Assembly: GCA_038741355.1 (NCBI GenBank)
Contig: JAVYLC010000002.1
Location: 8,738-72,737 of the forward strand
Direction: 5' to 3'
Origin: Nitrososphaerota archaeon
GTDB lineage: Archaea; Thermoproteota; Nitrososphaeria_A; Caldarchaeales; Calditenuaceae
DNA: 64,000 bases
Numbering within the stretch: the stretch's first letter is position 1; each line of letters begins with the position of its first letter. The position numbers and the translations under genes are program-made. Below, in pieces: positions 42,045 through 60,684 of the stretch. Below the pieces are notes generated by a model that worked only from the letters and a program-made list of their open reading frames with translations, was not told the DNA's origin and ran no database searches.

Positions 42045-43251
42045 GCTTCACGTAAAGCTCCCCCTTCTCTGATGCTGCCAGCCTCCTGAGCCGTACAGTG
42101 GGTTCATGTAACAGCTTGTTGACTATGCTCTTTGACAGTGCCTCCAACACGCTAGCATCTCTTTCTTGAGACCCTGTTAGGAGTCTGAGAGCCTTAGAAA
42201 GTTCCCTCTGCCTCAACATCTCCGCCCTCACTCTCACTGATCTAATTATATCATCCGCACTAATGGCACGCAGCCATGCAAAAAGCCTATCAGCCTCCTT
42301 CTCTAACATCTCATCCACGTCCACATTACCGTTAGAGAATCTGGGCGCAGGGGCAAGCGCTTTCAAGTCTTCTATATCGTATAGCTCGACAAAATCATTC
42401 GTGGAAAGGGTAGGGTCGATGTTTCTCGGAACCGAGAGGTCAATCATCACGAGCCTTTTCCCGTCAGCGAAGCCGTTTAACACTCTATCGTCTATCACGT
42501 AGTTTTTTGACGACGTGGCTACTATCACACCATCAACCATGCCTAAGATTTCATGAATGGAGTCTAACCCCGTGACGGACCTCACAAGCCTCTTCGCGTG
42601 CTGAGGCACCGATGATGGATTCCTCGTCGCGACGTATACCTCTTCAAACCCGGCCTGGGCAAGCCCCTCGATTACGGCCTTTCCAATCTTCCCCGCACCT
42701 ACAACTAATACTGGCCGTGACGCGCCGAGCCTTGCCTTCAATAACTGGATCGCGAGTGTGCCTATGTTTATCGAGTCATCTATTCCCACAGCCCTCCTTA
42801 TACGTCTAGCCGCGTTGTAGGATCTGACAAAGAGTTCTTTCACGACCTGACTGTACTTGCCTACGCCATGAAATTTCGCGTCCCTAACTTGTTGAAGTAT
42901 TTGTGTCTCGCCCGGCGCAAGTGAGTCGAGCCCACATGCCACTTCTATCAGATGTTTTATCGCTTCCCTCCCCTCCATCATGTAAAACTGGCATTCCGAC
43001 ACGCCCACCCCAGCGAAAAGTGCTACGATTCTGCGTCGCGGCGCGTCCAGCTTATCAGTAACCAAATAAATCTCAAACCTATTACACGTGAATAGTATGG
43101 AAAGTCCGTAGCTGTCGCAGACCGTATATAAAGCTTGAATCACTCTGTCAAGCGTAAGATCGATGGCTAACCTTTCTAGCACATCCAATGAACAAGTCCT
43201 AAAATTTGATCCTATGAGAAGTATATCTAGCCTAGACTCCTCCACAGCCAT
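42004..43251 (-). CDS. hemA: glutamyl-tRNA reductase
   Basis: The catalytic motif FTCNRFEIY (CNR.E) is present. Rossmann motif VVGAGKIGK. 415 aa. Confidence 0.85.
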   Translation of the reverse strand: MAVEESRLDILLIGSNFRTCSLDVLERLAIDLTLDRVIQALYTVCDSYGLSILFTCNRFEIYLVTDKLDAPRRRIVALFAGVGVSECQFYMMEGREAIKHLIEVACGLDSLAPGETQILQQVRDAKFHGVGKYSQVVKELFVRSYNAARRIRRAVGIDDSINIGTLAIQLLKARLGASRPVLVVGAGKIGKAVIEGLAQAGFEEVYVATRNPSSVPQHAKRLVRSVTGLDSIHEILGMVDGVIVATSSKNYVIDDRVLNGFADGKRLVMIDLSVPRNIDPTLSTNDFVELYDIEDLKALAPAPRFSNGNVDVDEMLEKEADRLFAWLRAISADDIIRSVRVRAEMLRQRELSKALRLLTGSQERDASVLEALSKSIVNKLLHEPTVRLRRLAASEKGELYVKLARDLFGLAEPSN

Positions 43252-43757
43252 GCAGGATAAGTACTTCCACTGTTCCTATATTACTTTTCACTTTCAACAA
43301 AAAAATTCAGTGTTGTTGTGGAATCCACAACACAACTACCTATCTACTTACCCATGAATAAAGAATGAGGACCTAAATATTGAGGGAAGGTTAAGGTGTT
43401 TCGGCCCGTTATACCTCTACGCTTCTCATAGAGCTTTAAAAATATATTTGGTGAACTTCAGGTTGGTTGTCCCTCCAGTTTATAAGAGGTCGGCCCACAA
43501 AAAGTCTAGACCAGCCTTTCACACCGCCGGGGCTTCTCAAAGAGAGCGACCATGGCTCCAGAGCATGGGTAAAGTAGAATACAGATAGAAGTGAGCAGAG
43601 CAGAATATATCAGACTAGGCTGGATGGTCTGGAACCCGTCTATCGTTGGGCTGCTTATCGTCTTTTAGCCATGTCTGCCAGCGGTATTCATGTGGGCAGA
43701 TTTTGAGTGGCTTTAGCGTTAGGGGGGTTGTAAAGGTTATATAACAGGCCCAATAGT

Positions 43758-44231
43758 TTAAGGACTAAAAACTCTTCCCCGTGTTCTAAGAAAGGTGGCG
43801 ATGATGATTATTTGAATTATGATAAGTAGATCATATGAGACGATGAACGGTGGACAGAGAAATGGACAGCTGAACTGCGGAGTGCTTGCTATTGGAGTTA
43901 TGCCGAAGAGGTATAGGGCAAAAGCCTCTACAGGTATTCCTATAGACGGCCCCGTGAGAGGATTGAGCAAGAGGAGGATAAGATACAACATAGCCCAGTA
44001 AAAAGCCAGCCTATAACCTGTACGGGGCTTGAAAAACAGAAGACCGCCTATAGACACTTGGATGATTATAAAAGCGATCAACGCTGTGGCATGGTGTGTC
44101 TTAGGATTGTCAAACCACAATAGTCCATCGAATGCAAGAATAACAAAACTTACTAAAATGGATAGAGCTAACAAAACTCTAATAAGAGTAAAAGTTTTGC
44201 TGAGGCTCATTAGGTTACCAACCTGATCCAC
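43758..44231 (-). CDS. hypothetical 4-TM membrane protein (low GC)
   Basis: 157-aa hydrophobic ORF. It is the first low-GC gene after hemA. Confidence 0.35.
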   Translation of the reverse strand: MDQVGNLMSLSKTFTLIRVLLALSILVSFVILAFDGLLWFDNPKTHHATALIAFIIIQVSIGGLLFFKPRTGYRLAFYWAMLYLILLLLNPLTGPSIGIPVEAFALYLFGITPIASTPQFSCPFLCPPFIVSYDLLIIIQIIIIATFLRTRGRVFSP

Positions 44232-44505
44232 TAATATAAATTTTTCCCGTGATCTAACTTTTAAGAATCACACCATTTTTATATGCGTAGATATTGTGCG
44301 TAAATCCTCTAGTTTACTAGTTACAAAAACTCCGGCTAACCATATTTCAGTGGGATGCTGGTCCAACCCAAGACTCACTATGCTGACTTACATAGGGAAG
44401 ACAGGGAGTTATAACAAATATGCGCGCTGGAGCATATATTGAAGAAATTGTTAAATAATCCAATGTGTAATGACGGTATCCCGGTCTTAAGGACATAGCC
44501 ATCTT

Positions 44506-45107
44506 TAACATTGGCTCTGTTAACTTAAGGCTTTTGGTCTAGGGCTGTGGTTGTTTGGTCATGTTTGTTGGGCAGAGGACGGCTTTACCCGTGGTCCTCT
44601 ACGGGCTTTACCTCGTAGCCCTAGGCCTAGGCTTCGGGAGTGCAGCTATGGCTCTTAAACCTTTCGTAGACAGGAGTCATGTGGCTGTCTGGAAGTGGGT
44701 TCAGAGGCTTCTAGGATTCAGGAGGATCTTCGGGGCTAGGTGCAGGGTATCCCTATCCTCTTGGATGAGACGGCTGTCATGGTTAAAGGCCTCCTAGCAT
44801 GGGTGTGGGTTGCATATGAGCCTTTCAGCAAAAGAACCCTGGTATATTGGAGCATGCGCTAGGCTTGGTCTAACCCATCACAGATACAGGTTTGGGGATT
44901 GGCTCTTCCAAGCAATTGAGAGGGCTGTACAGATGCTCAAGGACAGGACGGAAAACTTCGACGACTACTTCCCATGCAGAAAGAAAGCATGCATTCTAGG
45001 GCATGTATGGAGCTGGCTGAACCTATTCCACATATTCAACCAGCCAGAGACGCTACATCTGATGAAGACCATAACAGGGGTGATAGAGATGGCTTAAGTT
45101 AACAGAG
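44506..45107 (+). mobile_element. degenerate IS6-family insertion sequence, copy 1
   Basis: Imperfect terminal inverted repeats: ggctctgttaacttaagg at 44508-44525 and cttaagttaacagagcc at 45090-45106. Flanked by TTAACATT at 44498-44505 and 45111-45118. Confidence 0.6.
44555..45097 (+). pseudogene. IS6-family transposase, frameshifted (two ORF pieces)
   Basis: The pieces 44555-44797 and 44810-45097 align with the intact neighbouring transposase (FVDRSHVAVWKWVQR versus FRVSHQSVRGWFLR). This is the IS6 HTH signature VS/DHSTIyRWVQk. Confidence 0.6.
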
Positions 45108-45118
45108 CCCTTAACATT

Positions 45119-45768
45119 GGGACTGTCAACTTAAGGCCACCCATGACCTTATCCACTTCTCTGATACCTTAGGCCTGTATGTTGGGGAGCATGTGTTGAA
45201 CTGTTTTATTCTTCTCTTGAGCTTGCTGAACCAAGACTCTATCGCGTTCCTCCTGCCGAATGTCTCTACCCTCCTCCTAAAGCCCAGAATCTTCATGGGC
45301 CATCGGTACCATGGAGCCCTATCCGTGTAGACGGTAGGGTTATTAGCGCACCTATCCCTAACCACCTCAAGGAACCTTATACACTCGGCTATCCCCCTAC
45401 CCCTAGATACCTGGACTGCCATCACCTCCCTAGCAGCCCATAGATAGGCCCTCCTGACGAGATTACGGATTACTATCGGCCCACGCCTACGCCTATCTAC
45501 AAGTGAGAAGGCCTCACCAGCCCTAAGGAACCAACCCCTAACAGACTGATGGCTCACCCTGAATCCTAGCTCTCCTAAGACCTCTGCAACCCCTCTAAGA
45601 CTGAGCCCCCTCCACATACATCCTGACAGCAAGCCCCCTAACCCATGAAGGATAACGCATACGAGGAAAGACACTTCTATCACCAAAGAAACCCATAAGA
45701 CGGCCTAGGCCGACCCCAACTCTATCCACCCCCAACTAATGGGAAGGCCCAGACCATAGACCTTAAGT
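45119..45768 (-). mobile_element. IS6-family insertion sequence, copy 2 (intact)
   Basis: Perfect 18-bp terminal inverted repeats: GGGACTGTCAACTTAAGG at 45119-45136 and CCTTAAGTTGACAGTCCC at 45751-45768. An 8-bp direct repeat TTAACATT flanks both sides, which is the TSD length typical of IS6. Confidence 0.7.
45126..45686 (-). CDS. IS6-family DDE transposase (short form, 186 aa)
   Basis: HTH motif LGFRVSHQSVRGWFLRAGE. TDRAPWY. C-terminal RRNAIESWFSKLKRR resembles the IS6 N.IE..H..IKRR catalytic E/K region. Confidence 0.65.
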   Translation of the reverse strand: MVIEVSFLVCVILHGLGGLLSGCMWRGLSLRGVAEVLGELGFRVSHQSVRGWFLRAGEAFSLVDRRRRGPIVIRNLVRRAYLWAAREVMAVQVSRGRGIAECIRFLEVVRDRCANNPTVYTDRAPWYRWPMKILGFRRRVETFGRRNAIESWFSKLKRRIKQFNTCSPTYRPKVSEKWIRSWVALS

Positions 45769-45827
45769 TGACAGTCCCTTAACATTTGAAGAAAAGCTTA
45801 AATCATAATGCAGAGGGATAGTTAAGT

Positions 45828-46163
45828 ATGGCTGACAAACCTATAAAGAGGCTGTTCTCATGGCTTTTACTAAGCACGAGGGGTGGACCTACACGTCTTC
45901 TAATACTTTTACTTCTCCGGAAAGGGTCAGCCAACGCTAATCAGATAGCGAATTCGCTTCATCTCCACTATAAAACTGTTCAATATCACTTGGAGGTTTT
46001 ATTGGAGAATAAGCTAGTCGAAGCTGATGACGTGAAATATGACGTAAAATATAGGTTATCCCCGCTCGTCCTTGCAAACATGGATGTTTTCGAGTCATTA
46101 ATAGATGAGATTTTCTCACATAGAGAAGAGAAGGTGAGTATAGTGTGGGACCTCTCTGGATAA
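45828..46163 (+). CDS. winged helix-turn-helix transcriptional regulator (ArsR-like)
   Basis: 111 aa. NQIANSLHLHYKTVQYHLEVLLENKLV is an HTH recognition-helix pattern. Confidence 0.5.
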   Translation: MADKPIKRLFSWLLLSTRGGPTRLLILLLLRKGSANANQIANSLHLHYKTVQYHLEVLLENKLVEADDVKYDVKYRLSPLVLANMDVFESLIDEIFSHREEKVSIVWDLSG

Positions 46164-46429
46164 CTAATATTGTAGTATCTATCATGATTGTTTTAGGTCT
46201 TTTATACTCGCTAAGAAACTATCTAATAACGCGAAGGCTTGCCAGAACCAAATTTACAAACGCTCTTGTCGCATTAACGGCGATTTTCTTACTCCAAAAC
46301 GTTTACGCTGCATACATGTTCTACGTGCTCTCTTGGAGCTATGATGTGGAGATAGCTTATCCTCTTCTAATGCTAAATCTTCTCGGCCTAGCTGGCTTCA
46401 GCATATTCGTATATCTTTCACACGTATAA
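46145..46429 (+). CDS. small membrane protein (3 TM)
   Basis: Hydrophobic 94-aa ORF. Overlaps the regulator gene by 19 bp. Confidence 0.3.
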   Translation: MGPLWITNIVVSIMIVLGLLYSLRNYLITRRLARTKFTNALVALTAIFLLQNVYAAYMFYVLSWSYDVEIAYPLLMLNLLGLAGFSIFVYLSHV

Positions 46430-46790
46430 AGCCAGTATTTGACAGAAACATTACAAAACTCGGGCCAGTATGGCGGCTCATCACTAATTTTCAAAGACGC
46501 AGGAACAATTAGGGTGAGACCTACATAGAGAGGATGGGGTTTATAGGTGTGATGGAGAGTGGGGAATGTATTCGTCTGTCCTTGGACCTCCTAATTGGAA
46601 GCTTTCGTTTATATGTGTCGCAGTGTCGATAAGACTTCGCAGGCACTATCGTAATAGATCAGCTAGCACGTATGCTCACTACAGCCCGGCCCACTACATC
46701 TCAAGCCAAGGATACGCTGTATGTCATACATTTTTAAGGTTTTGAAGATTTGGGGGAAAGATTAACTTTAGGTCTGAAGTTTTATCTGAG

Positions 46791-47942
46791 ATGTTGAATT
46801 ACTTAAAGAAGCGTGAAGTGTTTATCTCTGTTCTACTTCAGCTCGCTCTAGCATTCTTCTTCGCTCATGGATATGATTTCCGTGTAAACTATCTGGCTGG
46901 AAGAAATATTGTTTTAGGTTTGTCTCCTTACCAGGGCGGATATTTAGAGGGGCCGTTGGCTGTAGGGTATGGCCCGTATGTGCAGGGTTTGGGTGAAACT
47001 CCTTTGTGGGCCCTTTACGCAGGACTAGCGTACATTGCATCAGCAGGCAACTTATTCCTCTTTAACTTGATTCTAAAGATACCTATCATCATTGCGAATG
47101 TAGCCCTCAGCTTTCTTACAATGAAAAAAGGTGGCGACAGTTTCTTCTTCCTCTACAATCCATACCTTCTCTTAGTCTCTGCAGTATGGGGAAAACCTGA
47201 TAATGTGGCAGTATTGCTCGCAGTAGCATCAATTACCATATTGCATAGATACTATGGCTCTTTGTCGGTGGCTGTATCGGTGATGATCAAGCCGCTGGCT
47301 CTTGTAATGGCGCCATCATTCATACTGGCTTGGTGGAAAGAGAAGGAAAAAATATTCATCGCTTTTGTAGCGTTGGTTCTGATGTTTTTTACACCTTTCG
47401 TCTTATTGAACTGGAGGTTGGAGACTGTCGTCTATGGATTTCCTAACTGGTTTAGATCAGTTGGTGGGATATCTCCGTTTGATTTTGTAGAAGCAGTTTA
47501 CGGGACATCAACCGTACCCACGTGGCTTGAGCCTATATCATATCTTTCGGCGGTCTCTCTAGCGGTTATGGTTATGTTGGCGATTAAGCGCCCACCGACG
47601 AGTATTGATGGTATATTCCGTCTAGGTCTTGTCTCTGCATCTCTTTTCTTTAGCCTTCGCCCATGGGTGTCGGAGCAAAACCTTCTCATCATTTTGTCGC
47701 TTTTTATCATTGTCTGCGGCAGACTGCCTTCCCGGCTGCTTTGGATAATTCCTTTGATATTCGCTGGTCTTAATCTATCGATACCACAACAGCTATATCT
47801 TTTATATCCCTCAATAATTGAGGATCTTATTGCTTTAAATCATCCTATCAGGTACTGGCTTAAGTTCGTAGTGTCGGTAGCCTGGGTTATTGTTCTATGG
47901 ACGGTGCTGGTTAAAAAGTGTCTGTGGAAGTGGTGGATTTAA
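46791..47942 (+). CDS. polytopic membrane protein, possible GT-C-type glycosyltransferase (DUF2029/PMT-like)
   Basis: 383 aa with ~10 TM segments. An acidic first loop (HGYDF) and W-rich periplasmic loops are present. No definitive motif was found. Confidence 0.35.
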   Translation: MLNYLKKREVFISVLLQLALAFFFAHGYDFRVNYLAGRNIVLGLSPYQGGYLEGPLAVGYGPYVQGLGETPLWALYAGLAYIASAGNLFLFNLILKIPIIIANVALSFLTMKKGGDSFFFLYNPYLLLVSAVWGKPDNVAVLLAVASITILHRYYGSLSVAVSVMIKPLALVMAPSFILAWWKEKEKIFIAFVALVLMFFTPFVLLNWRLETVVYGFPNWFRSVGGISPFDFVEAVYGTSTVPTWLEPISYLSAVSLAVMVMLAIKRPPTSIDGIFRLGLVSASLFFSLRPWVSEQNLLIILSLFIIVCGRLPSRLLWIIPLIFAGLNLSIPQQLYLLYPSIIEDLIALNHPIRYWLKFVVSVAWVIVLWTVLVKKCLWKWWI

Positions 47943-48595
47943 AGATAGTCGTTAGAGGATTAGCGGCTGTACATATTTTATGGGGGCTATCCCTTCTACT
48001 AGAGCCTACTAGGTATGTTTCTAAACCTATCATACCTGCTTTATTCGCGTCTATACATTTTATAATCTTCCTCCTACTGTTGACTCATGAGAAGTACGGA
48101 GCTGTTTTGGGGTCTGTTTTTCTAACCTACTATTGGTTTTTTGTTAAACCTATCGCGCCGATAGCTGAGCCTCAAACAGTTGGGATACTTAGCATCACAC
48201 TATCCATTCTAACACCATATGCCCCAAAACTGTCGCCAGATAAACATGGAACAATTCAGGATGCTCTACTGAGACTTGGCTTGGCCTATCCCTTTATTGA
48301 GTGGGGGTTAGATGCTTTCCGTAACCCTCTTCATTTCAAATCATATCTTTCTGGAAATGTTATAACATCTTTTCTTATACCGACAGGTCTCCTCGACCTG
48401 GCTGTATTATGTCTTGGTTTATTTGAAGTTTCTCTATCGCTTCTAATTTTGACAGGTTTTAAGAGGCGTGTAGTCTCGTTCCTGACATTCTCTGTATTGA
48501 TTGTTTTTTCCTTAGTGGCCGGCTATCCACTCGCGCTACCTCAGAACATAGCTCTCATGGGCGTTGCATATATTTGGCTTAAGCCATCTTCTTGA
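47918..48595 (+). CDS. membrane protein (DoxX-like, 5-6 TM)
   Basis: 225-aa hydrophobic ORF. Overlaps the upstream gene by 25 bp. Confidence 0.35.
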   Translation: MSVEVVDLKIVVRGLAAVHILWGLSLLLEPTRYVSKPIIPALFASIHFIIFLLLLTHEKYGAVLGSVFLTYYWFFVKPIAPIAEPQTVGILSITLSILTPYAPKLSPDKHGTIQDALLRLGLAYPFIEWGLDAFRNPLHFKSYLSGNVITSFLIPTGLLDLAVLCLGLFEVSLSLLILTGFKRRVVSFLTFSVLIVFSLVAGYPLALPQNIALMGVAYIWLKPSS

Positions 48596-49958
48596 ACTTA
48601 TGATCTGTGTAGAATTCCCATGGCTTCAGCAATATATAAAATGGTCCAATCTTTTTCCTCAGCTTGGCTTGGGTCACAGCTTTCCACATGCCATACTTGA
48701 GTTTCTCTATGCTGAAGTCGTGTTTAAAGAGTAGGCGATGGTCATAGCCGTGAAGGGGTTTCTCCCATTCCTCTACAAGCATCTTATCTTTTACCATTTC
48801 ATAAAGTTTGGTTCCAGGAAGCGGGTAAGGTACTGTCATGGAGAAATAGTCAAGGGGGAGGCTTGACGCCATTTTTATTGTTTTTAGCATTGTCTCGTTT
48901 GTCTCACCAGGATATCCGAGTATGAAAAACGCGCCAACTTTTATGCCGGCCTTAACACCCGTATAAACAGCTTTCTTAGACTGCTCAACTGTCAGTCTTT
49001 TATTCATGAGTTGAAGCGTCCTATCATCGCCTGCCTCGAGTCCGAAAATTATTTTATGGCATCCTGCGCGTTTCATGGCTTTAGCGACCTCTGCGTCGAA
49101 CAGATCAGCCCTAGCCAGACACTCCCATAGGATGTCCAGCTTCCTATCCATTATTTCGCGACATAGCCGTAGAACATGTCTTTTATTGGCTATAAACAGC
49201 TCATCAGCAAACCATATCCTTTCATAGCCAAACTTATACCGTATCTCCTCCATCTCGTCGACTATGTTTTCAGGGCTTCTTGTACGATAAACGCGGCCGT
49301 AGTCTGGCCGCCAGCAAAAACCGCATGAAAAAGGGCAGCCCCGCGAGGCTATCATCGAGGTCATGGTGTATCCGTAGTTTCGGAGATAGTACCGCTTATA
49401 GTGATCGTTATCATATAGATCCCTAGCCGGGAAGGGTAGGTCGTCTAAGTTTTTTATGAGAGGCCTTTGCCCCGTGAAGAAGTGACTGTCACTGTTGGCT
49501 GGAACAGCTTGGGTGGTCTTTTTTAAAAATTGCCCAGAAATGTGCAGGCCTTTAACACGCTGGAATTTCATGCTGTTATCTAATTCGGTCATTAGCTCAA
49601 GCATTGCTTCCTCACCTTCACCCTGAACAGCGATATCGAATAGGCCGAGGAATTTTGCCGGATATGCTGAAGGCATGGGTCCACCGGCGACAAGTAGCTC
49701 TACCTTCTCCCTTAGCGCAGAGGCTATATCCAATGCCGGCTTCACCATCGAAAGCATGCTGTAGATGCCTACTACCCTTGACTGCGCCGCTTCTCTTATA
49801 ACGTCTTCTATTTTTTTGAATGTACAGTCAATGATTTTGACTTTGTATCCATGCATTCTAATATACGATGCAATATATCCTATGCCCAGCGGTGGAAACT
49901 TAAAAGATCTAGACCTACCGTCATCGAAGTATGGAAAGATGAGCGCTAAGTCATTCAA
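48579..49958 (-). CDS. B12-binding domain radical SAM protein (class B rSAM)
   Basis: N-terminal cobalamin-binding Rossmann-like region (LGIGYIASYIRMHGYKVKIID). The radical-SAM motif CPFSCGFC follows. 459 aa. Confidence 0.8.
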   Translation of the reverse strand: MNDLALIFPYFDDGRSRSFKFPPLGIGYIASYIRMHGYKVKIIDCTFKKIEDVIREAAQSRVVGIYSMLSMVKPALDIASALREKVELLVAGGPMPSAYPAKFLGLFDIAVQGEGEEAMLELMTELDNSMKFQRVKGLHISGQFLKKTTQAVPANSDSHFFTGQRPLIKNLDDLPFPARDLYDNDHYKRYYLRNYGYTMTSMIASRGCPFSCGFCWRPDYGRVYRTRSPENIVDEMEEIRYKFGYERIWFADELFIANKRHVLRLCREIMDRKLDILWECLARADLFDAEVAKAMKRAGCHKIIFGLEAGDDRTLQLMNKRLTVEQSKKAVYTGVKAGIKVGAFFILGYPGETNETMLKTIKMASSLPLDYFSMTVPYPLPGTKLYEMVKDKMLVEEWEKPLHGYDHRLLFKHDFSIEKLKYGMWKAVTQAKLRKKIGPFYILLKPWEFYTDHKFKKMA

Positions 49959-50730
49959 GCTGTTTAAACACCAGCCGGTAACGAAGTGTGTCCTTCTCTT
50001 CCGGAAATTCTAAGCTTACGCCGGCCCAGTCGAGGCGGTTACCAAGCACCTCCCTGCCGGCAAAGGACTTAACATCATCTGGCCTATCAATAATCATCGA
50101 AAGTTTTAGAGAAGGTGAAACTAGTTCGACAACACCGTTTTCAAGTTTCATCCAAGGCGGCAGGTTCTTCTTTACGCCCTCAATTCTCATGTATGTGAAC
50201 AACCTCCCTGAGAGCTCATTTGCGACAAGAACGCGCATATTCTTGGGTGTATCTCGCCTAGCAGTAACTTCTACCTCGGATCCATTTATTCTGTACATCA
50301 GATGTACTGATCCATATGCCTTTAGTTGTATGTAGCGGCTTTTTACACCTAAGAGTGTACGTCCAGTCATTAACATGAAGTATAGTGGCCTAAGCGCCTT
50401 GCTCTGTAAGTAGAGAGGTGACAACAGTCTCTTTAGCTTCCTATAGAGTTTATCGATACACGCTTTTGAGAGGTATTTTACTGATACGCCGTCTAGCTGG
50501 ATTTTTCTGGCTATGAATCCATTATTAATTTGACGTGTCTCAGCCGTGAGTGGGAAAAGGGTCCTCCTACCTAATATTCCCACAACACCTCCTAACCCTA
50601 TCCCCTCGCCAATCAAAGCTAAGCCATCTAAAACTGGCACAAGACCACGTACAACACCCTCGATCTCATGTGAAGGGGTAGAAGGTGTGTTAAATGTAAA
50701 GAAAAGTCTCTCGACTAGTCTACTCATCAA
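49951..50730 (-). CDS. hypothetical protein, 8-bp overlap with the B12-rSAM gene (probable partner)
   Basis: 259-aa ORF immediately upstream of the rSAM gene on the same strand. No recognisable motifs. Confidence 0.4.
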   Translation of the reverse strand: MMSRLVERLFFTFNTPSTPSHEIEGVVRGLVPVLDGLALIGEGIGLGGVVGILGRRTLFPLTAETRQINNGFIARKIQLDGVSVKYLSKACIDKLYRKLKRLLSPLYLQSKALRPLYFMLMTGRTLLGVKSRYIQLKAYGSVHLMYRINGSEVEVTARRDTPKNMRVLVANELSGRLFTYMRIEGVKKNLPPWMKLENGVVELVSPSLKLSMIIDRPDDVKSFAGREVLGNRLDWAGVSLEFPEEKDTLRYRLVFKQLE

Positions 50731-50881
50731 GCAGCGGCTCCTGTCTTTAGTAGATAATGTTTTTCCGAAATTTCACGATGTTAAAAATGTTTAAACATCG
50801 TTTAAATGCAGATGCCCTCATTTTCTATTACTCCTAATTTGGGAAAACTCTTTTGTCCTCCCTTCCTCCATTACAGCGTTA

Positions 50882-52804
50882 ATGATGTTTTTACAGTCTA
50901 TGATAACTTTAGCTTTCATGGCTATTTCAGTCATTCTCCCCCTCTATATCGTGGCATATGTTCATCTACTCATTCTATCGCGACGATATACACAGCCATC
51001 AAGAACGACACTTCAGCGATACCCTAAAGTCTCTGTCCATCTACCAATCTTTAATGAGAAACATGTTGTCGGGAGGCTGATAGAAGCTGTGTGCAACTTA
51101 ATCTATCCATCAGACAGGCTTGAGATAATAATCATAGACGACTCTGTAGATGAAACATCATCTATATGTGAAGAACTAGTCAGAAAGTATAGAGCCAAAG
51201 GGATAAACATTGTTCACATCAAGCGTAATGATAGGAAAGGGTTCAAGGCAGGCGCCCTCCAGTATGCTCTCCAAAACTCAAGCGGCGAGTTTATAGCAAT
51301 TTTTGACGCAGATTTTATCCCGCAACCAAGCTTTCTAATACAAATCCTCCCCTACTTCACAGATAGCCGGATTGGGGTAGTTCAAGCAAGGTGGGGGCAT
51401 CTAAACAGATACTACTCCCCTTTAACAGCCGCACAAGCGCTCAGCCTAGACCTCCATTTCACCATTGAGCAGAGAGGGCGTTCATCTAGATACTTTTTGA
51501 ATTTCAACGGCACGGCTGGTGTTTGGAGAAGAGCATGCATAGAGGACGCTGGCGGATGGATAGACTCTCTAGCCGAGGACCTTGACCTGAGTTATAGGGC
51601 CCAGCTAAAAGGTTGGCGTATTGTTTACATCGATGATTTAGTCGTTCCAGCCGAGGTTCCCGTGCAGATGAAAGCGGTGCGCAGACAGCAATATAGATGG
51701 GCTTACGGATCAATTCAAACAGCTATAAGATACATGTCTCAAATTCTCCTATCACATCTTCCCAGCCTCGTCAAGATACATGCCATAATTCATCTTACTA
51801 GGCATTTACCTCAGTTACTCTTAACTGTCCAAGTTTTAATGATTCCTTTAGTTGTAAGTTCGGGGGTTCAAGCTCGCTTTGACATAATGCTTGGATGGGT
51901 GGTGTTGTATCCATTGTTATTAACATCATCACTTCTTCTCACAGCTGAAAACCATCTTAAAAAAACATACAGCAGCCTGCTAAAATTTGTTAAAGATGTG
52001 CTACTGATGTTTTTATGGGGGATGGGCATGTCAGTTAACAACTCATTGGCTGTCATCCATGCTTTTTTGAAAAAAGATTTAGAGTTTGAGAGGACTCCGA
52101 AGTTTGGCATAGTGGGTAAAAAAGGCAACTGGCGATGGAGTAGCTATGCTCTATTGAATGAACCCAACATCGTCTTTGACCTCGCAATGGGAGTATACAG
52201 CCTTTACGCTTCTCTATACTGTTTCTATACGAGGGCCCTTTACTTCCTACCTCTAACCACATTATATTCTAGCTCCCTATTCTACACTGTTTTCGCCTCA
52301 ATAATCCAGACAGCACGTCGAGGTAGGCAAACACACCGATGGCCACGCACTGATGTCCTTGCTATCATTTTAGCGGCGGTGTTTGTAGTAATTTCTTTCC
52401 ATTCATTTGCGATGATCGTGTATCCATTAGAGACGGCTATCGCAGCTATTGAAAAAGCCTCAACTTCAGTCGATAACGTTTACATGGTTAAACAACTTGA
52501 TGATGCACTTGCCCACCTCCCATCGCAAGGTAACCCTGTATGGGTGCTGCCGACTGCAAACACGGACTATCAGCTCATTAGATACGATTTGCAATCCATT
52601 AAAATAAGGCTCTTAAATGTATACAAAAACGATTACTTCACATATCACTCTGTCACAGAGGATGCTAGATACGCCTTAGAAGTAGTAGTCGGCCAGTTGC
52701 GACGAATACAACCGTTTGCATGGCTTAGTGTCTGGAACCTATCAGCATCACTTATTGTAGTATATTCAGTGTTTTATTTCGTGGTGAAAGAAAGTCATGC
52801 CTAG
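50882..52804 (+). CDS. processive family-2 glycosyltransferase (cellulose/chitin/hyaluronan-synthase-like) with C-terminal membrane extension
   Basis: GT-A motifs in order: IIIIDDSVDET, FDADF, and RRQQYRWAYG (Q-x-x-R-W). TM helices flank the catalytic domain. A ~250-aa C-terminal extension carries additional TM helices. Confidence 0.8.
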   Translation: MMFLQSMITLAFMAISVILPLYIVAYVHLLILSRRYTQPSRTTLQRYPKVSVHLPIFNEKHVVGRLIEAVCNLIYPSDRLEIIIIDDSVDETSSICEELVRKYRAKGINIVHIKRNDRKGFKAGALQYALQNSSGEFIAIFDADFIPQPSFLIQILPYFTDSRIGVVQARWGHLNRYYSPLTAAQALSLDLHFTIEQRGRSSRYFLNFNGTAGVWRRACIEDAGGWIDSLAEDLDLSYRAQLKGWRIVYIDDLVVPAEVPVQMKAVRRQQYRWAYGSIQTAIRYMSQILLSHLPSLVKIHAIIHLTRHLPQLLLTVQVLMIPLVVSSGVQARFDIMLGWVVLYPLLLTSSLLLTAENHLKKTYSSLLKFVKDVLLMFLWGMGMSVNNSLAVIHAFLKKDLEFERTPKFGIVGKKGNWRWSSYALLNEPNIVFDLAMGVYSLYASLYCFYTRALYFLPLTTLYSSSLFYTVFASIIQTARRGRQTHRWPRTDVLAIILAAVFVVISFHSFAMIVYPLETAIAAIEKASTSVDNVYMVKQLDDALAHLPSQGNPVWVLPTANTDYQLIRYDLQSIKIRLLNVYKNDYFTYHSVTEDARYALEVVVGQLRRIQPFAWLSVWNLSASLIVVYSVFYFVVKESHA

Positions 52805-53288
52805 GAAACTACTCTATGTATCTGTATATTTGTTTGTAGGTGTGGCCCTCATATCTGCTGCGTACATTCTAGACGTATACCCACTTGAGCAGGCGGCCGG
52901 CTTCCTCAGCAGAGCGCAGTCGGCTGGATACGCAGAAGACATGGCTGCATACGTTGCTCAAGCCTTGCACTTCATACCCCGTGAAGGGAATCCCGTCTGG
53001 CTATTCCCCACACAGAGAACTGACTTCGCCCTGATAAGAAACGACATTTTTGCCATAATTGACAGATTGAATAGCCTAACTGATATTCCACGCCAGAGTG
53101 CTGCATACGCACAGACTCTAAACGATATAAGGGGAAAAATTGCTGTATTAACCAGCCAGCTCTACGAAGCAATGCCCTACATGTTTTTTAAACCAATCAA
53201 TATAATAGCCGCAATAGCCTATCTGCTTACACCCATTATCATACAAACAAAAATTAACAGACAAAAAAGTCACGCTAAAAAGGCTTAA
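52797..53288 (+). CDS. membrane protein paralogous to the C-terminal module of the upstream GT2 synthase
   Basis: VYPLEQAAGFL...REGNPVWLFPTQRTDFALIRNDIFAIIDRL aligns with the GT2 C-terminus VYPLETAIAAI...SQGNPVWVLPTANTDYQLIRYDLQSIKIRL. Its coordinates overlap the GT2 gene by 8 bp. Confidence 0.5.
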   Translation: MPRKLLYVSVYLFVGVALISAAYILDVYPLEQAAGFLSRAQSAGYAEDMAAYVAQALHFIPREGNPVWLFPTQRTDFALIRNDIFAIIDRLNSLTDIPRQSAAYAQTLNDIRGKIAVLTSQLYEAMPYMFFKPINIIAAIAYLLTPIIIQTKINRQKSHAKKA

Positions 53289-53393
53289 GTAAGAGTTGCC
53301 AATTACTGATCATAAATGGTTTTTAAAGCATTTTCCCGACACTTCCATTTATTGGTAGTTTCAGAATTTTTTTAAGCCTCAAAGCAGTAACCA

Positions 53394-56300
53394 TTGATGA
53401 ATTTGATTGATGGAAGATTTCTGAAGGAGCGAGGATACGATGTTTATAATGGAAACGAACTAGTAGTAAAAGGCGCACTAGAGGCCGGCATACCAATAGC
53501 ATCTGGCTATCCGGGTTCTCCAGTTGCTGAGTTTTTCACATTTACTGAGAAATACGCAGATTGGCTTGCAGAAAATGGATTTTATTGGGAAGCTGCAAAA
53601 AACGAGGCCGAAGGAGCAGGTAGGCTCAATGGCGCAAGAATTATCAACAAAGATGCAATGGTTGTCATGAAGAGTGTCGGATTAAACGTCGCTACTGACC
53701 CCTTGGAAATTTCTAATTATCAAGCAGCTGCAACTATTGGATGGGGTGGAGTTGTTGTAGTTGGGGATGATCCGCATGCTTCTAGCACACAGATTGCTTC
53801 CAGCTCAAGACTTCTGCTAAAGAAGCTTAGGATACCAATTTTAGAGCCTAGTACTCCGCAAGAAGTGAAAGATTACATTGGAGAAGCATTGGAATTATCA
53901 CGGTCATCGCAGTTAATAGCCGGATATATCATCCAATCATGGCAAGCTGATGGAATAGGGTCGGTGGAACTCTATAAAAACAAATATCCGACTAGAGTGA
54001 AAGAAAGGATTGATATAAGTAAAATAAATGTGGAGAAAGAAGTAAGCCTTCCTCCGGTTACTGCGGAGTTAGAAAAAGATATTGTTATAAGGAGGTTTCC
54101 GGCCGCGGTAAGTCATGCAAGAAGAAGGAATCTGAATCGAATACTTTATTCGGATGGTGGAAAAAGGAAGATTGGATTCGTTACCTCTGGTCTGGCTTAT
54201 AACTATCTCGAACAAGCATTGTATGAGTTGGGAATGCAGGGAAGACTTCCTATTCTAAAACTGGGACTGGTTTATCCACTTGATGAGAATTTAGTGAAAG
54301 ATTTTGCAAGACAAGTTGAAAACATTTATGTCGTAGAGGAAAAAGAGCCTTTCATAGAGTCTGAGATTTCTCTTATTCTGAGAGACGCTTACCAAAACAA
54401 AGAAATCGAATATGTTAACGTTTGGGGCAAAAGATTCCCTAACGACAGGGAGGGCTTCCCTGAACACGGCGGTCTGAGTCCCACTATTGTGATTAAGATA
54501 ATAGGTGAAGAGCTACTCAATGCTTTAGATGATTTGTCTTATGAAGAGAAAAGTAGAATTAATAAGGTCCTCGAACTAGTCGAGGACGCTAACAAATATT
54601 CCTTACAGCCTCCAAAAAGGATTCCTACCTATTGTGCAGGCTGCCCACACAGGGGGACTAGTAGTGTTCTTAAATATTTGAGGAGGTCTCCTGGAAATGA
54701 TTTCCTCACAGTACCAGACATCGGGTGCTATTCAATGTCGGCTTTTACTCCGTGGAAGGAGGCCCACGCTTTCAATGCAATGGGTCGTGCAGGAGCCTCT
54801 GCATATTCCATGGGGGTAGTAGAAAACAAGAAAGTTCTTCTCGTTGGTGATGGAACTTTCGTCCACGGCGGCTATGTGTCTGTACAGGAAGCTATAGACA
54901 AAAATCTAGACGCCATCATAGTTATACTTTATAATCACTATGTGGCCATGACCGGGCATCAAAAAGTTCAGATAAAGGATGCAAAAGATATAGAGGAAAA
55001 AGTAAAAGCGATGGCGAGAGGAAAGGATGTCTATGTAAGAATAATAGATCCAGATGATAGGAAAGGCTACATTGAAGAAATGAAAAAACTGATGAATAGA
55101 AAAGGTACAGCTGTACTGATCTCGGATAAGGAATGCGGTATAACTAGGGAAAGGAGAAGGAGGGCTGAGAGGGCGGGAAAACCTAAGACGGAATTCATAA
55201 ACATAACTAACGAAGTATGTGAGAACTGCAGGGAGTGCACCATGAACACAGGCTGCCCAGGGTTAACTCTTGTAAACACGCCGTATGGCGAAAAAGTTGC
55301 GATAGACATGTCAATATGCACAGAGGATGAGTACTGTGCGAAAATAGAAGCCTGCCCCTCATTCGAAAGAGTTAGGGTGCACTACGCAGGAGGGAAACCA
55401 AAGGAGAGATTGCTTGATTCAGAACTGGATGGTGTGCCAGAACCTGATAATAAGGTAGAGTTTAACGATACTTACTCTATTTACACCGCAGCTGTTGGCG
55501 GTATGGGTGGTGGGCTGCTCTCCGTGATTTTGGCTCGAGCTGGAGCGAAAAGCGGCTATAATATAGGTAGATGGATAGGACACGATAAAAAAGGATTAGC
55601 CATAAGAAATGGCGGTGTTTACAGTCATATAATATTTTCTAAAAACGATGCACAATTATCTCCTGTTATTGTAGCCGGCAAAGCTGATCTAATAATTGGT
55701 CTTGACAAGCTTGAAGGCTCAAAGGGGTTAAAGTATGCTAACGCTAGTACAAAATTTGTTTCAAATCAAACAGAGCTACCTACCATACCTATGCTCATAG
55801 GAGAGGAGGAATATCCACACGATATTGACGAAAAAATTAAAAATAGGTTGACATCATATAATAATTATGGGCTGCCGATTTCGGAGCTTGCAGAGTTTTA
55901 CTTAGGAAACAAACTATTTTCCAACATAGTCATGCTGGGAGTCTGCTATCAGCTCGGCCTATTACCATTGGACTCTAAAAATATAGAGGATGCGATAATT
56001 GAATCAGTCAAAGCAGAGCGGGAGAAAAATCTAAGGGCTTTCAAGTTTGGAAGGAAGCTTGTGTATGACAGTACTTTTTTGGATAAGCTAATAAACAATC
56101 CTCATTTCCTAAGAATATACCATGAACACATGTGGTTTTCAAGAAGATCTCTGGAAGAGGTACTCTATGAGAAGAAGGACTATCTGAAAGATTACTATTT
56201 GATAAAGTCTAGGGGGTTGAAAATTGCTAATATGTATGAAAAACTAATAAAAGATTTTAAGAATGATAAAAAGTTGGATGAAGATGCCTTGAAACATTTT

Positions 56301-57041
56301 GCTATAAGGGTTTATGACTTGATAAAATGGGGCGGCATAGACTATGCTAAAAAATATGTGGAGTTGGTCTCCAAGGTTTATTATAAGGATAAAGAGGAAA
56401 AAGGATTTGCGGCTACCAAAGCTGTTATAGAAAATTTATACAAGGTAATGGCTATAAAGGATGAGTTATGGGTTTCCGAGCTACTATTAAGCAGAGAGAA
56501 GCTGGAGAGAGACAAGATTAAGTACAATGTACATGAGGAGCGAGGTGATAGTATAGAGTATATTCATTTAACAAGGCCGCAGATAGTTATAAGTGTTGGG
56601 AAACCTTTGGGAAAAATCATAAAATTCTTGAAAAAGAACTTGCCAAATTTGGCAAACAAAAAGATTGAGCTAGACGTTGAAGATGGCATGCTCAAAGTCA
56701 AATTAGTTATGAATACCAAAAATTGGCAGCTCCGAATCATCAGGAGGATGAAGTTTCTCCGGAAATATTTGTTTAGACATAAGAAGGAAGAAGAATTCAG
56801 AGACTGGTATGTTGAAAGGGTCATAAGTTACTTCCTCGAAAATTCTGAACAAAATTATGAGCTTGCTGTAGAGTTTCTTAAGATGCCGCTTAGTTTTAAT
56901 GTTCCAGCACATGCTAAGGGCATTACTGGATTCAGGGAAGTTATATATCCTAAAATGGACTTAGCGAGAAAAACTTTTGAGAACCTAACTTCTACCTCGA
57001 ACCTTGTTTCCGAGTTAGAGCCTGTCGGCAAAAAGCAATGA
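53394..57041 (+). CDS. fused indolepyruvate:ferredoxin oxidoreductase-family protein (2-oxoacid:Fd oxidoreductase, bacterial long form)
   Basis: 1215 aa. N-terminal IorA signature GNELVVKGALEAG...GYPGSP. TPP/Fe-S region CAGCPHRG and CENCRECTMNTGCPG. IorB/POR-gamma-like AVGGMGGGLLS. ~350-aa K-rich C-terminal extension. Low GC. Confidence 0.8.
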   Translation: MMNLIDGRFLKERGYDVYNGNELVVKGALEAGIPIASGYPGSPVAEFFTFTEKYADWLAENGFYWEAAKNEAEGAGRLNGARIINKDAMVVMKSVGLNVATDPLEISNYQAAATIGWGGVVVVGDDPHASSTQIASSSRLLLKKLRIPILEPSTPQEVKDYIGEALELSRSSQLIAGYIIQSWQADGIGSVELYKNKYPTRVKERIDISKINVEKEVSLPPVTAELEKDIVIRRFPAAVSHARRRNLNRILYSDGGKRKIGFVTSGLAYNYLEQALYELGMQGRLPILKLGLVYPLDENLVKDFARQVENIYVVEEKEPFIESEISLILRDAYQNKEIEYVNVWGKRFPNDREGFPEHGGLSPTIVIKIIGEELLNALDDLSYEEKSRINKVLELVEDANKYSLQPPKRIPTYCAGCPHRGTSSVLKYLRRSPGNDFLTVPDIGCYSMSAFTPWKEAHAFNAMGRAGASAYSMGVVENKKVLLVGDGTFVHGGYVSVQEAIDKNLDAIIVILYNHYVAMTGHQKVQIKDAKDIEEKVKAMARGKDVYVRIIDPDDRKGYIEEMKKLMNRKGTAVLISDKECGITRERRRRAERAGKPKTEFINITNEVCENCRECTMNTGCPGLTLVNTPYGEKVAIDMSICTEDEYCAKIEACPSFERVRVHYAGGKPKERLLDSELDGVPEPDNKVEFNDTYSIYTAAVGGMGGGLLSVILARAGAKSGYNIGRWIGHDKKGLAIRNGGVYSHIIFSKNDAQLSPVIVAGKADLIIGLDKLEGSKGLKYANASTKFVSNQTELPTIPMLIGEEEYPHDIDEKIKNRLTSYNNYGLPISELAEFYLGNKLFSNIVMLGVCYQLGLLPLDSKNIEDAIIESVKAEREKNLRAFKFGRKLVYDSTFLDKLINNPHFLRIYHEHMWFSRRSLEEVLYEKKDYLKDYYLIKSRGLKIANMYEKLIKDFKNDKKLDEDALKHFAIRVYDLIKWGGIDYAKKYVELVSKVYYKDKEEKGFAATKAVIENLYKVMAIKDELWVSELLLSREKLERDKIKYNVHEERGDSIEYIHLTRPQIVISVGKPLGKIIKFLKKNLPNLANKKIELDVEDGMLKVKLVMNTKNWQLRIIRRMKFLRKYLFRHKKEEEFRDWYVERVISYFLENSEQNYELAVEFLKMPLSFNVPAHAKGITGFREVIYPKMDLARKTFENLTSTSNLVSELEPVGKKQ

Positions 57042-57165
57042 AGTGACAATTATCCTCTCCTCGCTAACTGAAAGATGGTAGACCTCTAGCAAGCCCAGTG
57101 CGCTAAACCAATTTTCTCAACTCTTTCACCACACATATTAACCCTCTTGGAATCGTTTGGGGTGG

Positions 57166-57193
57166 GGGATTGGCATCCCCCACCCGACAAGGC
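57166..57193. repeat. GC-rich perfect hairpin (11-bp stem, 4-nt loop)
   Basis: ggggtgggggat tggc atcccccacccg. Lies 125 bp downstream of the IOR stop, at the island boundary. Confidence 0.4.
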
Positions 57194-57364
57194 CGGGCTG
57201 CCGAGAAGTAGGGTGAGAAGATGTCCACATCTTCTTCCTAGAGAACTGAGGATAGAACTGTACTATGAGGTTGGAGGGCTGAGGAGGCAGGGACTATCAT
57301 ACTGAAGAATCATAGGCTCTGTGAGGGAGAGATATGGTGTTGTATTACAAAAATCCCACATTAG

Positions 57365-58237: not shown

Positions 58238-58248
58238 GCTACGGGCCC
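58143..58248 (-). tRNA. tRNA-Arg (anticodon CCG) with a ~30-nt intron at a non-canonical position (D-arm/anticodon-stem junction)
   Basis: The minus-strand reading is GGGCCCG-UA-GCUC...[intron with palindrome AGAUAUUA-UGCAUG-UAAUAUCU]...UCGGC-CUCCGGA-GCCGA-AGGUC-CUGGG-UUCAAGU-CCCAG-CGGGCCC-G. It shows a perfect 7-bp acceptor stem, a 5-bp anticodon stem, U33, and a canonical T-arm. The D-stem closure is imperfect, so the exact intron boundaries are uncertain. Confidence 0.7.
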
Positions 58249-58289
58249 AACGAAAACAACAATTTCCCATATATATGTTTAAGAGGAAA

Positions 58290-58445
58290 ATAGGGGGAGA
58301 GTTTGGCTGGAGGCCCGTCATCTGACAACGTCTGGGAAGCCGGATGAAAACCGTGCATTGGCTGCGGAATCGCCGTAAAGCGTTCGACGCCCTATTGCCC
58401 GGCCTTCATCCGGTTTTTCCCCACTGTCAGGCCGGGCCTCCAGCT
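58290..58445. other. ~150-nt block of nested inverted repeats (candidate structured RNA or terminator region)
   Basis: Outer 12-bp pair gctggaggcccg / cgggcctccagc. Middle pair ctgaca / tgtcag. Inner 9-13-bp pair gaagccggatgaa / ttcatccggtttt. The block sits immediately upstream of the tRNA on the minus strand. Confidence 0.3.
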
Positions 58446-58657
58446 CTGACGTAATTCTTGATTTTCTTCAGCAGTTCTCGGGCTTCTCTGGCTTTAACGC
58501 TGTTCATCCTGTAGTAGCTGATTGCAATGGAATGAACAGCCTGTTTCAGTCGATGGTTGTATTTGCCGATGTTTGGTTTATAAAGTCCGACGTAGCACAA
58601 AATCCTCCTCAGCTTCGCCGTAAAGTTCACGTGTAGAAGAATGTCTGCGAAAGCCAC
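58427..58657 (-). CDS. hypothetical small basic protein (uncertain)
   Basis: 76-aa ORF. No motif recognised. The region is structure-rich and could be non-coding. Confidence 0.2.
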   Translation of the reverse strand: MAFADILLHVNFTAKLRRILCYVGLYKPNIGKYNHRLKQAVHSIAISYYRMNSVKAREARELLKKIKNYVRAGGPA

Positions 58658-60679: not shown

Positions 60680-60684
60680 ATAGG

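Follow-up and report, generated by a model that had tools for sequence, protein, structure and literature searches.

A stretch of 64,000 nt from contig JAVYLC010000002.1 (assembly GCA_038741355.1) of a Calditenuaceae-like archaeon (Nitrososphaerota), referred to below as the window, carries a block of about 13 kb with low guanine-plus-cytosine (GC) content between its heme biosynthesis operon and a tRNA-Arg(CCG) gene. Our analysis indicated that this block is probably not one recent island but two adjacent, long-resident modules of this archaeon: a membrane-associated, predicted glycosylation cluster (module 1, 43.7-53.3 kb) and a gene for a fused IOR-family 2-oxoacid:ferredoxin oxidoreductase (module 2, 53.3-57.0 kb; IOR hereafter). 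Comparison with relatives showed that both modules were at the locus before the window species split from a sister species, and that their GC at third codon positions (GC3) has been near 0.4 since then. The block as such is an ordinary case of something already known: a glycosylation region that is flexible, poor in GC, and next to a tRNA gene. What was unexpected is that its low GC lasts through synonymous saturation, and above all that a family of LAGLIDADG endonuclease genes lies at tRNA ends, here next to a rebuilt tRNA-Arg gene.

Base composition of the block

Among all 13.35-kb windows of the 64 kb, the GC minimum (42.9%) falls on the one that starts at 43,701 (43,701-57,050), in agreement with the block of low GC outlined in an initial annotation of this DNA. 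All windows of the same size to the left of 43,701 have 51.2-53.9% GC, with no exception. GC3 is shifted too: it is 0.35-0.49 in all genes of the block except the insertion sequence (IS) fragments (0.56-0.58), compared with 0.55-0.67 in almost every flanking gene. Five 60-nt lines counted by hand in the initial annotation (53401, 49201, 43801, 41401, and 25201) were recomputed as 36.7, 43.3, 33.3, 58.3, and 56.7%, and these counts can be kept. Its value of 55-58% GC for the flanks was too high; the computed flank mean is 52.5%, which makes the step into the block about 10 points and not about 15.

The Lys/(Lys+Arg) ratio is 0.56-0.63 in the IOR, the radical SAM enzyme, the DoxX-like protein, and the membrane protein of 383 amino acids (aa). 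Composition-normalised tetranucleotides are mildly deviant, with r = 0.42-0.60 to the host reference for the block as against 0.58-0.79 for host windows, and this signature discriminates the block from the host weakly. No internal repeats were found within the 64-kb window.

Gene order of the locus in relatives

Relatives were gathered by a search for homologous proteins and then through the contigs encoding those proteins; a search of genome contigs with hemA as the query gave only Archaeoglobi matches of about 30% identity. One relative is a sister genome (L012), a 1.55-Mb contig whose backbone proteins are 73-96% identical in aa sequence to those of the window. Another, Candidatus Calditenuaceae archaeon HR02 (HR02; locus L016), is the closest named relative. 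Proteins identical to those of the window are also encoded in metagenome-assembled genomes that carry the NCBI label Nitrososphaerota archaeon.

The gene order in L012 is RtcB, metallophosphoesterase, glycerophosphodiester phosphodiesterase (GDPD), an intronless tRNA-Arg(CCG), IOR, hemA, and the remaining heme operon, with no glycosylation cluster at the locus (hemA-IOR-tRNA-Arg). According to blastn, the window and L012 are homologous at 31,924-43,336, 53,321-57,044, 58,143-58,191, and 59,096-63,999 (79-83% DNA identity), and three segments, S1 to S3, are found in the window but not in L012. These segments and the left neighbour of the block are as follows.

42,004-43,251, minus strand: hemA, left neighbour of the block
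43,337-53,320, strand not applicable: S1, the nine-gene cluster plus an IS pair; found in the window and HR02, not in L012
57,045-58,142, plus strand: S2, a cassette with a LAGLIDADG pseudogene at about 57,147-58,100; found in neither L012 nor HR02
58,192-59,095, strand not applicable: S3, between two tRNA 5' parts; not found in the relatives

The L012 counterpart of S1 is 345 bp long and has weak similarity to window 43,322-43,724.

In HR02, the order is thioredoxin, the nine-gene cluster, 120 bp, tRNA-Arg(CCG), and GDPD, while the heme operon and the IOR are missing; the DNA homology between the window and HR02 at this locus is 81-85%. A 64-nt remnant of the heme operon was identified in HR02 (L016 4,064-4,127, corresponding to window 35,422-35,485). 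It represents the 3' end of the last gene of the operon (radical SAM) and is fused to a clipped first cluster gene, which starts at the equivalent of window 43,774. This fused remnant indicates that an 8.3-kb deletion removed the whole heme biosynthesis operon in the HR02 lineage, and that the ancestor shared by the window species and HR02 had the cluster next to the heme operon.

The block was initially annotated as one unit of about 13 kb. This does not hold, as the IOR is syntenic in L012 (85% aa identity) and the cluster is orthologous at the same locus in HR02; module by module, the block is syntenic in relatives with similar composition, contrary to a single island. In line with the same annotation, presence varies among close relatives, L012 being without the cluster and HR02 without the IOR.

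At other chromosomal positions, the cluster order is kept in more distant Caldarchaeales, namely in L017 and L018, whose membrane GT2 synthase is 70% identical to that of the window, and in Ca. Caldarchaeum subterraneum (52%). The pair of GT2 and its partner alone is retained on still more distant contigs. The tRNA genes adjoining copies of the cluster or of GT2 are listed here.

L016 12,576-12,651: tRNA-Arg
L017 4,075-4,160: tRNA-Leu
L020 6,727-6,812: tRNA-Ser

The heme operon of the window has genes for URO-D (uroporphyrinogen decarboxylase) and a radical SAM protein beside hemALBCD (36,537-38,113), and so does that of L012. The RtcB gene of HR02 (L016 14,214-17,111) encodes 965 aa and contains an intein (Intein_splicing domain); RtcB of the window and L012 is intein-free (498 aa), and the exteins are 95-96% identical.

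Divergence of the modules and persistence of low GC

Between the window and HR02, aa identity is 79-97% for the cluster and 66-95% for the backbone, and four-fold-site identity is 0.70 and 0.65, respectively. In the comparison with L012, the IOR has an aa identity of 85% (backbone 73-96%) and a four-fold-site identity of 0.56 (backbone 0.58). The modules have diverged as far as the backbone, so both are at least as old as the speciation events. A recent acquisition, as initially proposed, is contradicted by this synonymous divergence and by the finding that the genes are GC-poor in every Calditenuaceae-like relative examined.

The GC3 of the IOR is 0.44 in L012 and 0.39 in L054, and that of the cluster is 0.37-0.49 in HR02 and L017, whose flanks mostly have 0.58-0.70. 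The GC deficit of the cluster is milder in Ca. C. subterraneum and L020. Four-fold sites of the window and L017 are near saturation (36% identical), yet GC at these sites (GC4) is 0.40 and 0.37. Low GC that persists through synonymous saturation points to a lasting property and not to a fresh donor signature.

The IS6 pair

Two IS6-family copies lie in a spacer of the cluster.

44,513-45,109, plus strand: copy A, degenerate, with perfect 17-bp terminal inverted repeats and a frameshifted transposase
45,119-45,778, minus strand: copy B, with perfect 18-bp terminal inverted repeats and a 186-aa transposase (45,126-45,686)

The octamer TTAACATT occurs three times: before copy A (44,505-44,512), between the copies (45,111-45,118), and after copy B (45,779-45,786). 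The GC content of copy B (52%) is host-like. HR02 has an empty site with one TTAACATG, and the window spacer, stripped of the IS copies, aligns continuously with the HR02 spacer. The three octamers, the host-like GC, and the empty site in HR02 together indicate that the IS pair is a late insertion in the cluster spacer and not the entry point of the block, which is the role it had been given initially. The copies had also been described as nested. Our analysis showed instead two diverged copies placed side by side, head-to-tail, on one reused 8-bp target, and no alignment between them was found beyond their ends.

Copy B matched the NCBIfam IS6 model NF033587 with an E value of 2.6e-17 and 63 bits (cutoff 125) over profile positions 20-196 of 202, and Pfam DDE_Tnp_IS240 with an E value of 9e-4, below the cutoff. 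The short perfect terminal inverted repeats and the 8-bp target duplication are as in the IS6 family, and the putative DDE transposase resembles the IS6 model at a score below the curated cutoff. The window copies (597-660 bp) are shorter than usual IS6 elements (0.7-0.9 kb). Copy B is probably multicopy, because short-read contigs end at 45,120 and restart at 45,751, at the ends of this copy.

Explanations for the low-GC block

The comparison with relatives shows that the locus between the thioredoxin gene and tRNA-Arg/GDPD evolves by differential loss and insertion. HR02 deleted the heme operon and has no IOR, and L012 has no cluster. The later events in this genome are small: two IS6 insertions at one TTAACATT target within the cluster, the arrival of a homing-endonuclease cassette next to the 3' end of the tRNA gene, and the insertion of 0.9 kb, by which the ancestral tRNA gene was apparently split. 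For the low GC itself, a low equilibrium that has been maintained and very slow amelioration after an ancient transfer are the candidates.

It is very improbable that the block is a single foreign island of about 13 kb from a bacterial or distant archaeal donor, set beside tRNA-Arg with IS6 as its means of entry and low GC as the signature of its donor. The GC step is real, the block is on the 3' side of the tRNA, IS elements are present, and the fused IOR architecture is common in bacteria, with matches of about 40% identity. However, the two halves of the block differ in presence and absence among sister genomes, each is orthologous in situ, and their divergence equals that of the backbone; the best matches of the cluster are in Caldarchaeales; and the IS pair lies inside the cluster, with its target duplication and the empty site in HR02. 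Neither an att repeat nor an integrase was found. Pfam and NCBIfam scans of all open reading frames (ORFs) at 43.2-59.1 kb gave IS6 transposases and the LAGLIDADG pseudogene only, with no integrase or recombinase, and no repeats of the tRNA region of at least 12 nt were found elsewhere in the window, so that the direct repeats of the tRNA 3' half looked for at the island edges are missing. Bacterial or distant archaeal best matches had also been predicted for the cargo. The prediction failed for the cluster (87%, 70%, and 52% to Caldarchaeales) and was partly right for the IOR (60% to Conexivisphaerales, 44% to Bathyarchaeia, and about 40% to bacteria). Archaeal islands and integrative elements linked to tRNA genes are known, among them the SSV-type and pNOB8-type integrase elements. 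The block is like tRNA-linked islands in its atypical GC, its position on the tRNA 3' side, and its presence or absence among close relatives. Unlike SSV-type and pNOB8-type elements, it has no integrase and no tRNA-derived border repeats, and unlike tRNA-linked islands it consists of two modules with separate histories, backbone-like divergence, and lineage-typical cargo.

The modules could also be old but mobile cassettes which relocate among Caldarchaeales tRNA loci by recombination, possibly via homing endonucleases or lost integrases, in which case the low GC would come from a GC-poor source pool or from incomplete amelioration. We consider this unlikely but deserving of attention, and the observations that speak for it are among those that weigh against two resident modules. 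The cluster or its GT2 core is 0-300 bp from a tRNA gene in independent copies, tRNA-Arg in HR02, tRNA-Leu in L017, and tRNA-Ser in L020. The IOR unit of L054, which corresponds to window 53,309-57,096 with 85.5% nt identity, sits in a different context between tRNA-Arg(UCU) and another tRNA-like gene, and the left boundary of the IOR is nearly equal (53,309 and 53,321) in two contexts. The adjacency of both the cluster and the IOR to tRNA genes in several genomes fits movement through tRNA loci, and endonuclease cassettes and tRNA remnants show that such loci recombine. Polarised four-fold changes comprise 70 from AT to GC and 43 from GC to AT, a count that is ambiguous in that a saturated AT-rich outgroup biases it in the AT-to-GC direction; slow amelioration could give such an excess. 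Further points bear on our reading in the same direction. The GT2 of the more distant L021 has host-like GC, which indicates that low GC is not intrinsic to the protein family. Parsimony cannot separate loss of the cluster in L012 from its gain in the ancestor of the window species and HR02, and at the L012 junction neither a direct repeat nor a gene remnant was found, so that in the absence of a scar deletion and insertion of the cluster are not distinguishable. The functional assignments are all by homology and below curated cut-offs. Against mobile cassettes, direct repeats or recombinase genes were found at no copy, and no att-like tRNA repeats were found in HR02, L017, or L020. The cluster of the window and HR02 is syntenic, diverged like the backbone, and plainly vertical, and the more distant a relative is, the lower is the identity, as expected of vertical descent. 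Few independent loci underlie the tRNA adjacency.

Another explanation takes the low GC to be unrelated to transfer: dispensable or weakly expressed genes would be at a lower GC equilibrium under AT-biased mutation combined with weaker GC-favouring selection or gene conversion, as is general among accessory genes. It is consistent with the survival of low GC3 through synonymous saturation, with the dispensability of each module in a sister species, and with the shift from Arg to Lys, as under long AT pressure. We hold it to be doubtful. The protein constraint is not relaxed, with cluster aa identity of 79-97% at backbone-like synonymous divergence; the GC step is sharply bounded and begins and ends at the module edges; and host GC is seen in other neighbours that can be dispensed with, among them the heme operon that HR02 lost.

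Two long-resident modules remain the reading we prefer. A sharp drop of 10 GC points together with a tRNA gene and IS elements mimics a fresh island, yet the genes are as old as their neighbours, and GC deviation by itself would over-call horizontal transfer in these archaea.

A LAGLIDADG gene family at tRNA 3' ends

The association between tRNA genes and an endonuclease family is the most novel lead of this analysis. The LAGLIDADG ORF reported in the gap between the block and the tRNA gene is present, but its reading frame is broken by an in-frame TGA (57,303-57,305) and a frameshift (near 57,420), so it is a pseudogene and not an intact gene. The reconstructed protein has about 280 aa, with an N-terminal helix-turn-helix (HTH)-like region and two LAGLIDADG_3 stretches (E value 2.6e-16). 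The site is filled in the window and empty in both L012 and HR02.

We found 32 relatives of this protein on metagenome contigs (loci L022-L053), with uninterrupted matches over residues 1-278 and an intact ORF in L031. Twenty-three of these loci had at least 150 nt of downstream sequence and were evaluable. A complete tRNA gene on the opposite strand lies downstream in 12 out of these 23, and in the 11 of those 12 with an uninterrupted frame the tRNA 3' end is at most about 140 bp from the endonuclease stop. Two further loci out of the 23 have an intron-containing or motif-only tRNA, and another two have tRNA 3' remnants. With an estimate of about one tRNA gene per 30 kb, chance adjacency of this kind is negligible. 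The tRNAs beside the endonuclease copies are those for Arg, Ile, Pro, Gly, Asp, Cys, Phe, and Leu, and those in L024 and L046/L047 have no amino-acid call. The trailers behind tRNA-Ile, tRNA-Phe, and tRNA-Arg are homologous from the first base past the tRNA. This family may home site-specifically at tRNA ends, for which the filled and empty sites and the homologous trailers are indirect evidence.

Free-standing homing endonuclease genes are known, such as T4 SegB in the phage tRNA gene cluster, and archaeal LAGLIDADG enzymes are known as intron-borne or intein-borne. The family described here is like known homing endonucleases in its double LAGLIDADG, its presence or absence between close relatives, and its linkage to tRNA genes. 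Unlike the archaeal LAGLIDADG enzymes, it lies outside introns and inteins and has an N-terminal HTH-like extension, and unlike known homing endonucleases it is convergent with tRNA genes of at least nine identities, 6-170 bp from their 3' ends. No published description of a LAGLIDADG family at tRNA 3' ends was found in the literature searched. Scans of viral contigs with the intact endonuclease and with the open frame of S3 gave no relatives, which for these two gap proteins is in line with the initial opinion that the block is not a virus.

As a tentative proposal, these genes may form an undescribed family of HTH-LAGLIDADG cassettes that insert precisely at the 3' ends of tRNA genes of many identities in thermophilic Nitrososphaerota and related archaea. 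Break repair might then remodel the tRNA genes, giving a chimeric tRNA-Arg(CCG) with a UCU-type 5' exon and a D-arm intron, and might make tRNA loci hot spots for the loss, gain, and movement of modules such as the low-GC cluster and the IOR. If true, this would extend the selfish elements that target tRNA genes by a new kind, and would reveal a new way for non-canonical introns of tRNA genes to arise.

The tRNA-Arg locus and segment S3

An intron-containing tRNA-Arg(CCG) close to the block had been annotated, and we confirmed it on the minus strand as a gene that looks functional. A second tRNA part was found about 0.9 kb away.

58,143-58,248, minus strand: intron-containing tRNA-Arg(CCG); exon 2 at 58,143-58,191, insert at 58,192-58,220, exon 1 at 58,221-58,248
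59,096-59,130, minus strand: stranded 5' half (nt 1-35) of the ancestral tRNA-Arg(CCG), with 2 mismatches in 35 nt to the L012 tRNA

ARAGORN and Rfam at the gathering threshold both missed the tRNA in the window, which came to light through a permissive Rfam search followed by splicing by hand; after excision of the 29 nt, ARAGORN accepts a tRNA-Arg(CCG) cloverleaf. Exon 2 is 92-94% identical to the tRNA of the relatives, and this homology ends exactly at the 29-nt insert in the D-arm. Exon 1 (28 nt) is divergent and has its own TATA box at 58,270-58,277, about 26 nt upstream. The insert folds as a hairpin with an outer GAG/CTC helix, and a clean 3-4-3 bulge-helix-bulge was not seen. The stranded 5' half directly follows the GDPD gene, as in the relatives, and pairs less well with the 3' strand of the present anticodon stem.

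In L054, a tRNA-Arg(UCU) at 1,673-1,776 carries an almost identical exon 1 and, at the same D-arm position, an insert that is also 29 nt long; a truncated remnant of the same endonuclease follows at 1,777-1,920. This match suggests that the tRNA-Arg(CCG) of the window is chimeric: its 5' part would be of UCU type and its 3' part that of the resident CCG gene, whose original 5' half was left 0.9 kb away. The tRNA-Arg(UCU) of L054 is upstream of the IOR and beside HEPN and PIN genes.

Segment S3 holds a 149-codon open frame on the minus strand, with no Pfam family even at E values up to 5. It also has a near-perfect hairpin of 150 nt at 58,301-58,450 (-82 to -85 kcal/mol; z = -5.0 and -6.9 for the plus and minus strands, respectively), with no Rfam match, and a zinc-ribbon ORF at 58,827-59,066, the DNA of which recurs beside an endonuclease copy on another contig. 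We considered S3 as a tRNA intron of about 0.9 kb and set this aside as less likely, given that the anticodon stem of the proximal gene is better paired and that this gene has a TATA box of its own. tRNA nt 25-33 occur at both junctions of the 0.9-kb insertion (CGCTGGCCT and CGTCGGCCT), and similar AAGATA..TATCT hairpins are found at both of its ends.

The predicted glycosylation cluster

Judged by homology, module 1 is a membrane-associated, predicted glycosylation cluster with a gene order conserved across Caldarchaeales. Its nine genes are the following.

43,758-44,231, minus strand: 157-aa membrane protein, first cluster gene, GC3 0.41
45,828-46,163, plus strand: ArsR/SmtB-type winged-helix regulator, 111 aa (Pfam HTH_5, E value 4e-9; also NCBIfam)
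46,145-46,429, plus strand: 94-aa membrane protein with three hydrophobic segments (DUF8036 in the precomputed Pfam table)
46,791-47,942, plus strand: 383-aa polytopic protein, putative GT-C fold (GT87/PIG-M-like) from its family profile
47,918-48,595, plus strand: DoxX-like membrane protein, 225 aa (Pfam DoxX, E value 2e-6)
48,579-49,958, minus strand: B12-binding radical SAM enzyme, 459 aa (Pfam)
49,951-50,730, minus strand: 259-aa protein, its gene overlapping the radical SAM gene; in all cluster copies
50,882-52,804, plus strand: membrane GT2 synthase, 640 aa (Pfam Glyco_tranf_2_3, E value 6e-32)
52,797-53,288, plus strand: 163-aa paralogue of GT2 residues 500-624, the C-terminal module (33% identity, E value 8e-16)

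The gene content described initially for the block (a winged-helix regulator, polytopic membrane proteins, a B12-radical SAM enzyme, a GT2 with a duplicated module, and a fused IOR) was recovered in full, and its glycan-type cargo was substantiated by the family of the 383-aa protein, which matches GT87/PIG-M GT-C glycosyltransferases. By itself, the 383-aa window protein gave no Pfam match. Pfam GT87 was matched by 19 of its 32 relatives, and the family profile matched structures of GPI mannosyltransferase 1 (E value 2.4e-18). We infer that it is a GT-C glycosyltransferase that would use a lipid-linked sugar donor. The GT2 synthase has the motifs IIDDS (residue 84), FDADF (141), FNGTAGVWRR (208), AED (about 231), and QQYRW (269), that is, the D, DxD, (T/A)ED, and QxxRW motifs of a GT-A domain as in BcsA-like synthases, and its top solved relative is BcsA (E value 6e-18 over residues 37-281). 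The GT2 and its 163-aa partner are present as a pair in every relative examined. For the 157-, 259-, and 163-aa proteins, no Pfam families were found even at E values up to 5.

Orthologues of the 157-aa protein are 84% identical in HR02, 68% in L017, and 49% in Ca. Caldarchaeum subterraneum. The best GT2 matches are all from Nitrososphaerota: HR02 (87%), a Nitrososphaerota genome (70%), Ca. Caldarchaeum (52%), and Nitrosocaldus (39%). The identity of the cluster thus declines with phylogenetic distance.

In the pathway we envisage, the GT2 would transfer a nucleotide-activated sugar at the membrane, the GT-C enzyme would extend the glycan or glycolipid on the outer face from a lipid-linked sugar, and the radical SAM enzyme might modify the sugar or the lipid. 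The product would be an envelope glycoconjugate, and the cluster would then be a conserved locus of Caldarchaeales for envelope glycosylation or lipid modification that combines GT2, GT-C, and B12-radical SAM enzymes.

GC-poor clusters for surface glycans are known, namely the O-antigen and capsule loci of bacteria and the agl or glycosylation islands of haloarchaea. Module 1 is like these loci in being rich in glycosyltransferases, membrane-associated, and about 10 GC points under the genome in several species. Unlike hypervariable surface-glycan loci, its content and order are conserved across an order. No genes for sugar-nucleotide synthesis and no flippase were recognised in module 1.

Membrane lipids can receive modified sugar head groups from pairs of a GT2 and a B12-radical SAM enzyme, as do HpnI/HpnJ for bacteriohopanetetrol cyclitol ether and Cds for calditol (PMC13459092). 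Module 1 likewise joins a GT2 and a B12-radical SAM enzyme. HpnJ is the top NCBIfam match of the radical SAM enzyme, and the GT2 matches include HpnI; AprD4, the top match of the radical SAM enzyme in PDB, acts on a sugar. Unlike HpnI/HpnJ, module 1 scores far under the equivalog cut-offs (156 bits for the radical SAM enzyme against HpnJ, cutoff 578) and has no hopanoid genes.

The fused IOR

Module 2 is a single gene, and its conserved unit is bounded by 53,309/53,321 and 57,044/57,096.

53,394-57,041, plus strand: fused IOR-family 2-oxoacid:ferredoxin oxidoreductase, 1215 aa, three domains

The domains are IorA-like with a thiamine pyrophosphate-binding part (TPP_enzyme_C), IorB-like POR, and DUF6537, which is the architecture of the fused IOR family of the NCBIfam PRK13030 type. 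Unlike members of that type, the protein is under the cut-off of the model (440 bits; cutoff 816), and its nearest relatives outside the clade are archaeal and not bacterial: Conexivisphaerales (60%, shorter proteins) and Bathyarchaeia (44%), followed by bacteria (about 40%). By these matches, the predicted oxidoreductase has a bacterial-like fused architecture with archaeal nearest relatives.

Other observations

Short-read assemblies of the same population break at 45,120/45,751 (copy B), at 57,335 (the endonuclease pseudogene), and at about 58,393 (the middle of the S3 hairpin). In one assembly, the island is alone on an 11.6-kb contig, which could mislead binning.

A second GC-poor patch (45-49%) is at window 15,179-16,117 on the plus strand and consists of three frame-shifted ORF fragments. 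These might be a decayed TnpB/Cas12f-like gene, a weak assignment made from a Cas12f1-like TNB domain (E value 0.003) and a DRG..RuvC-like motif recognised by eye.

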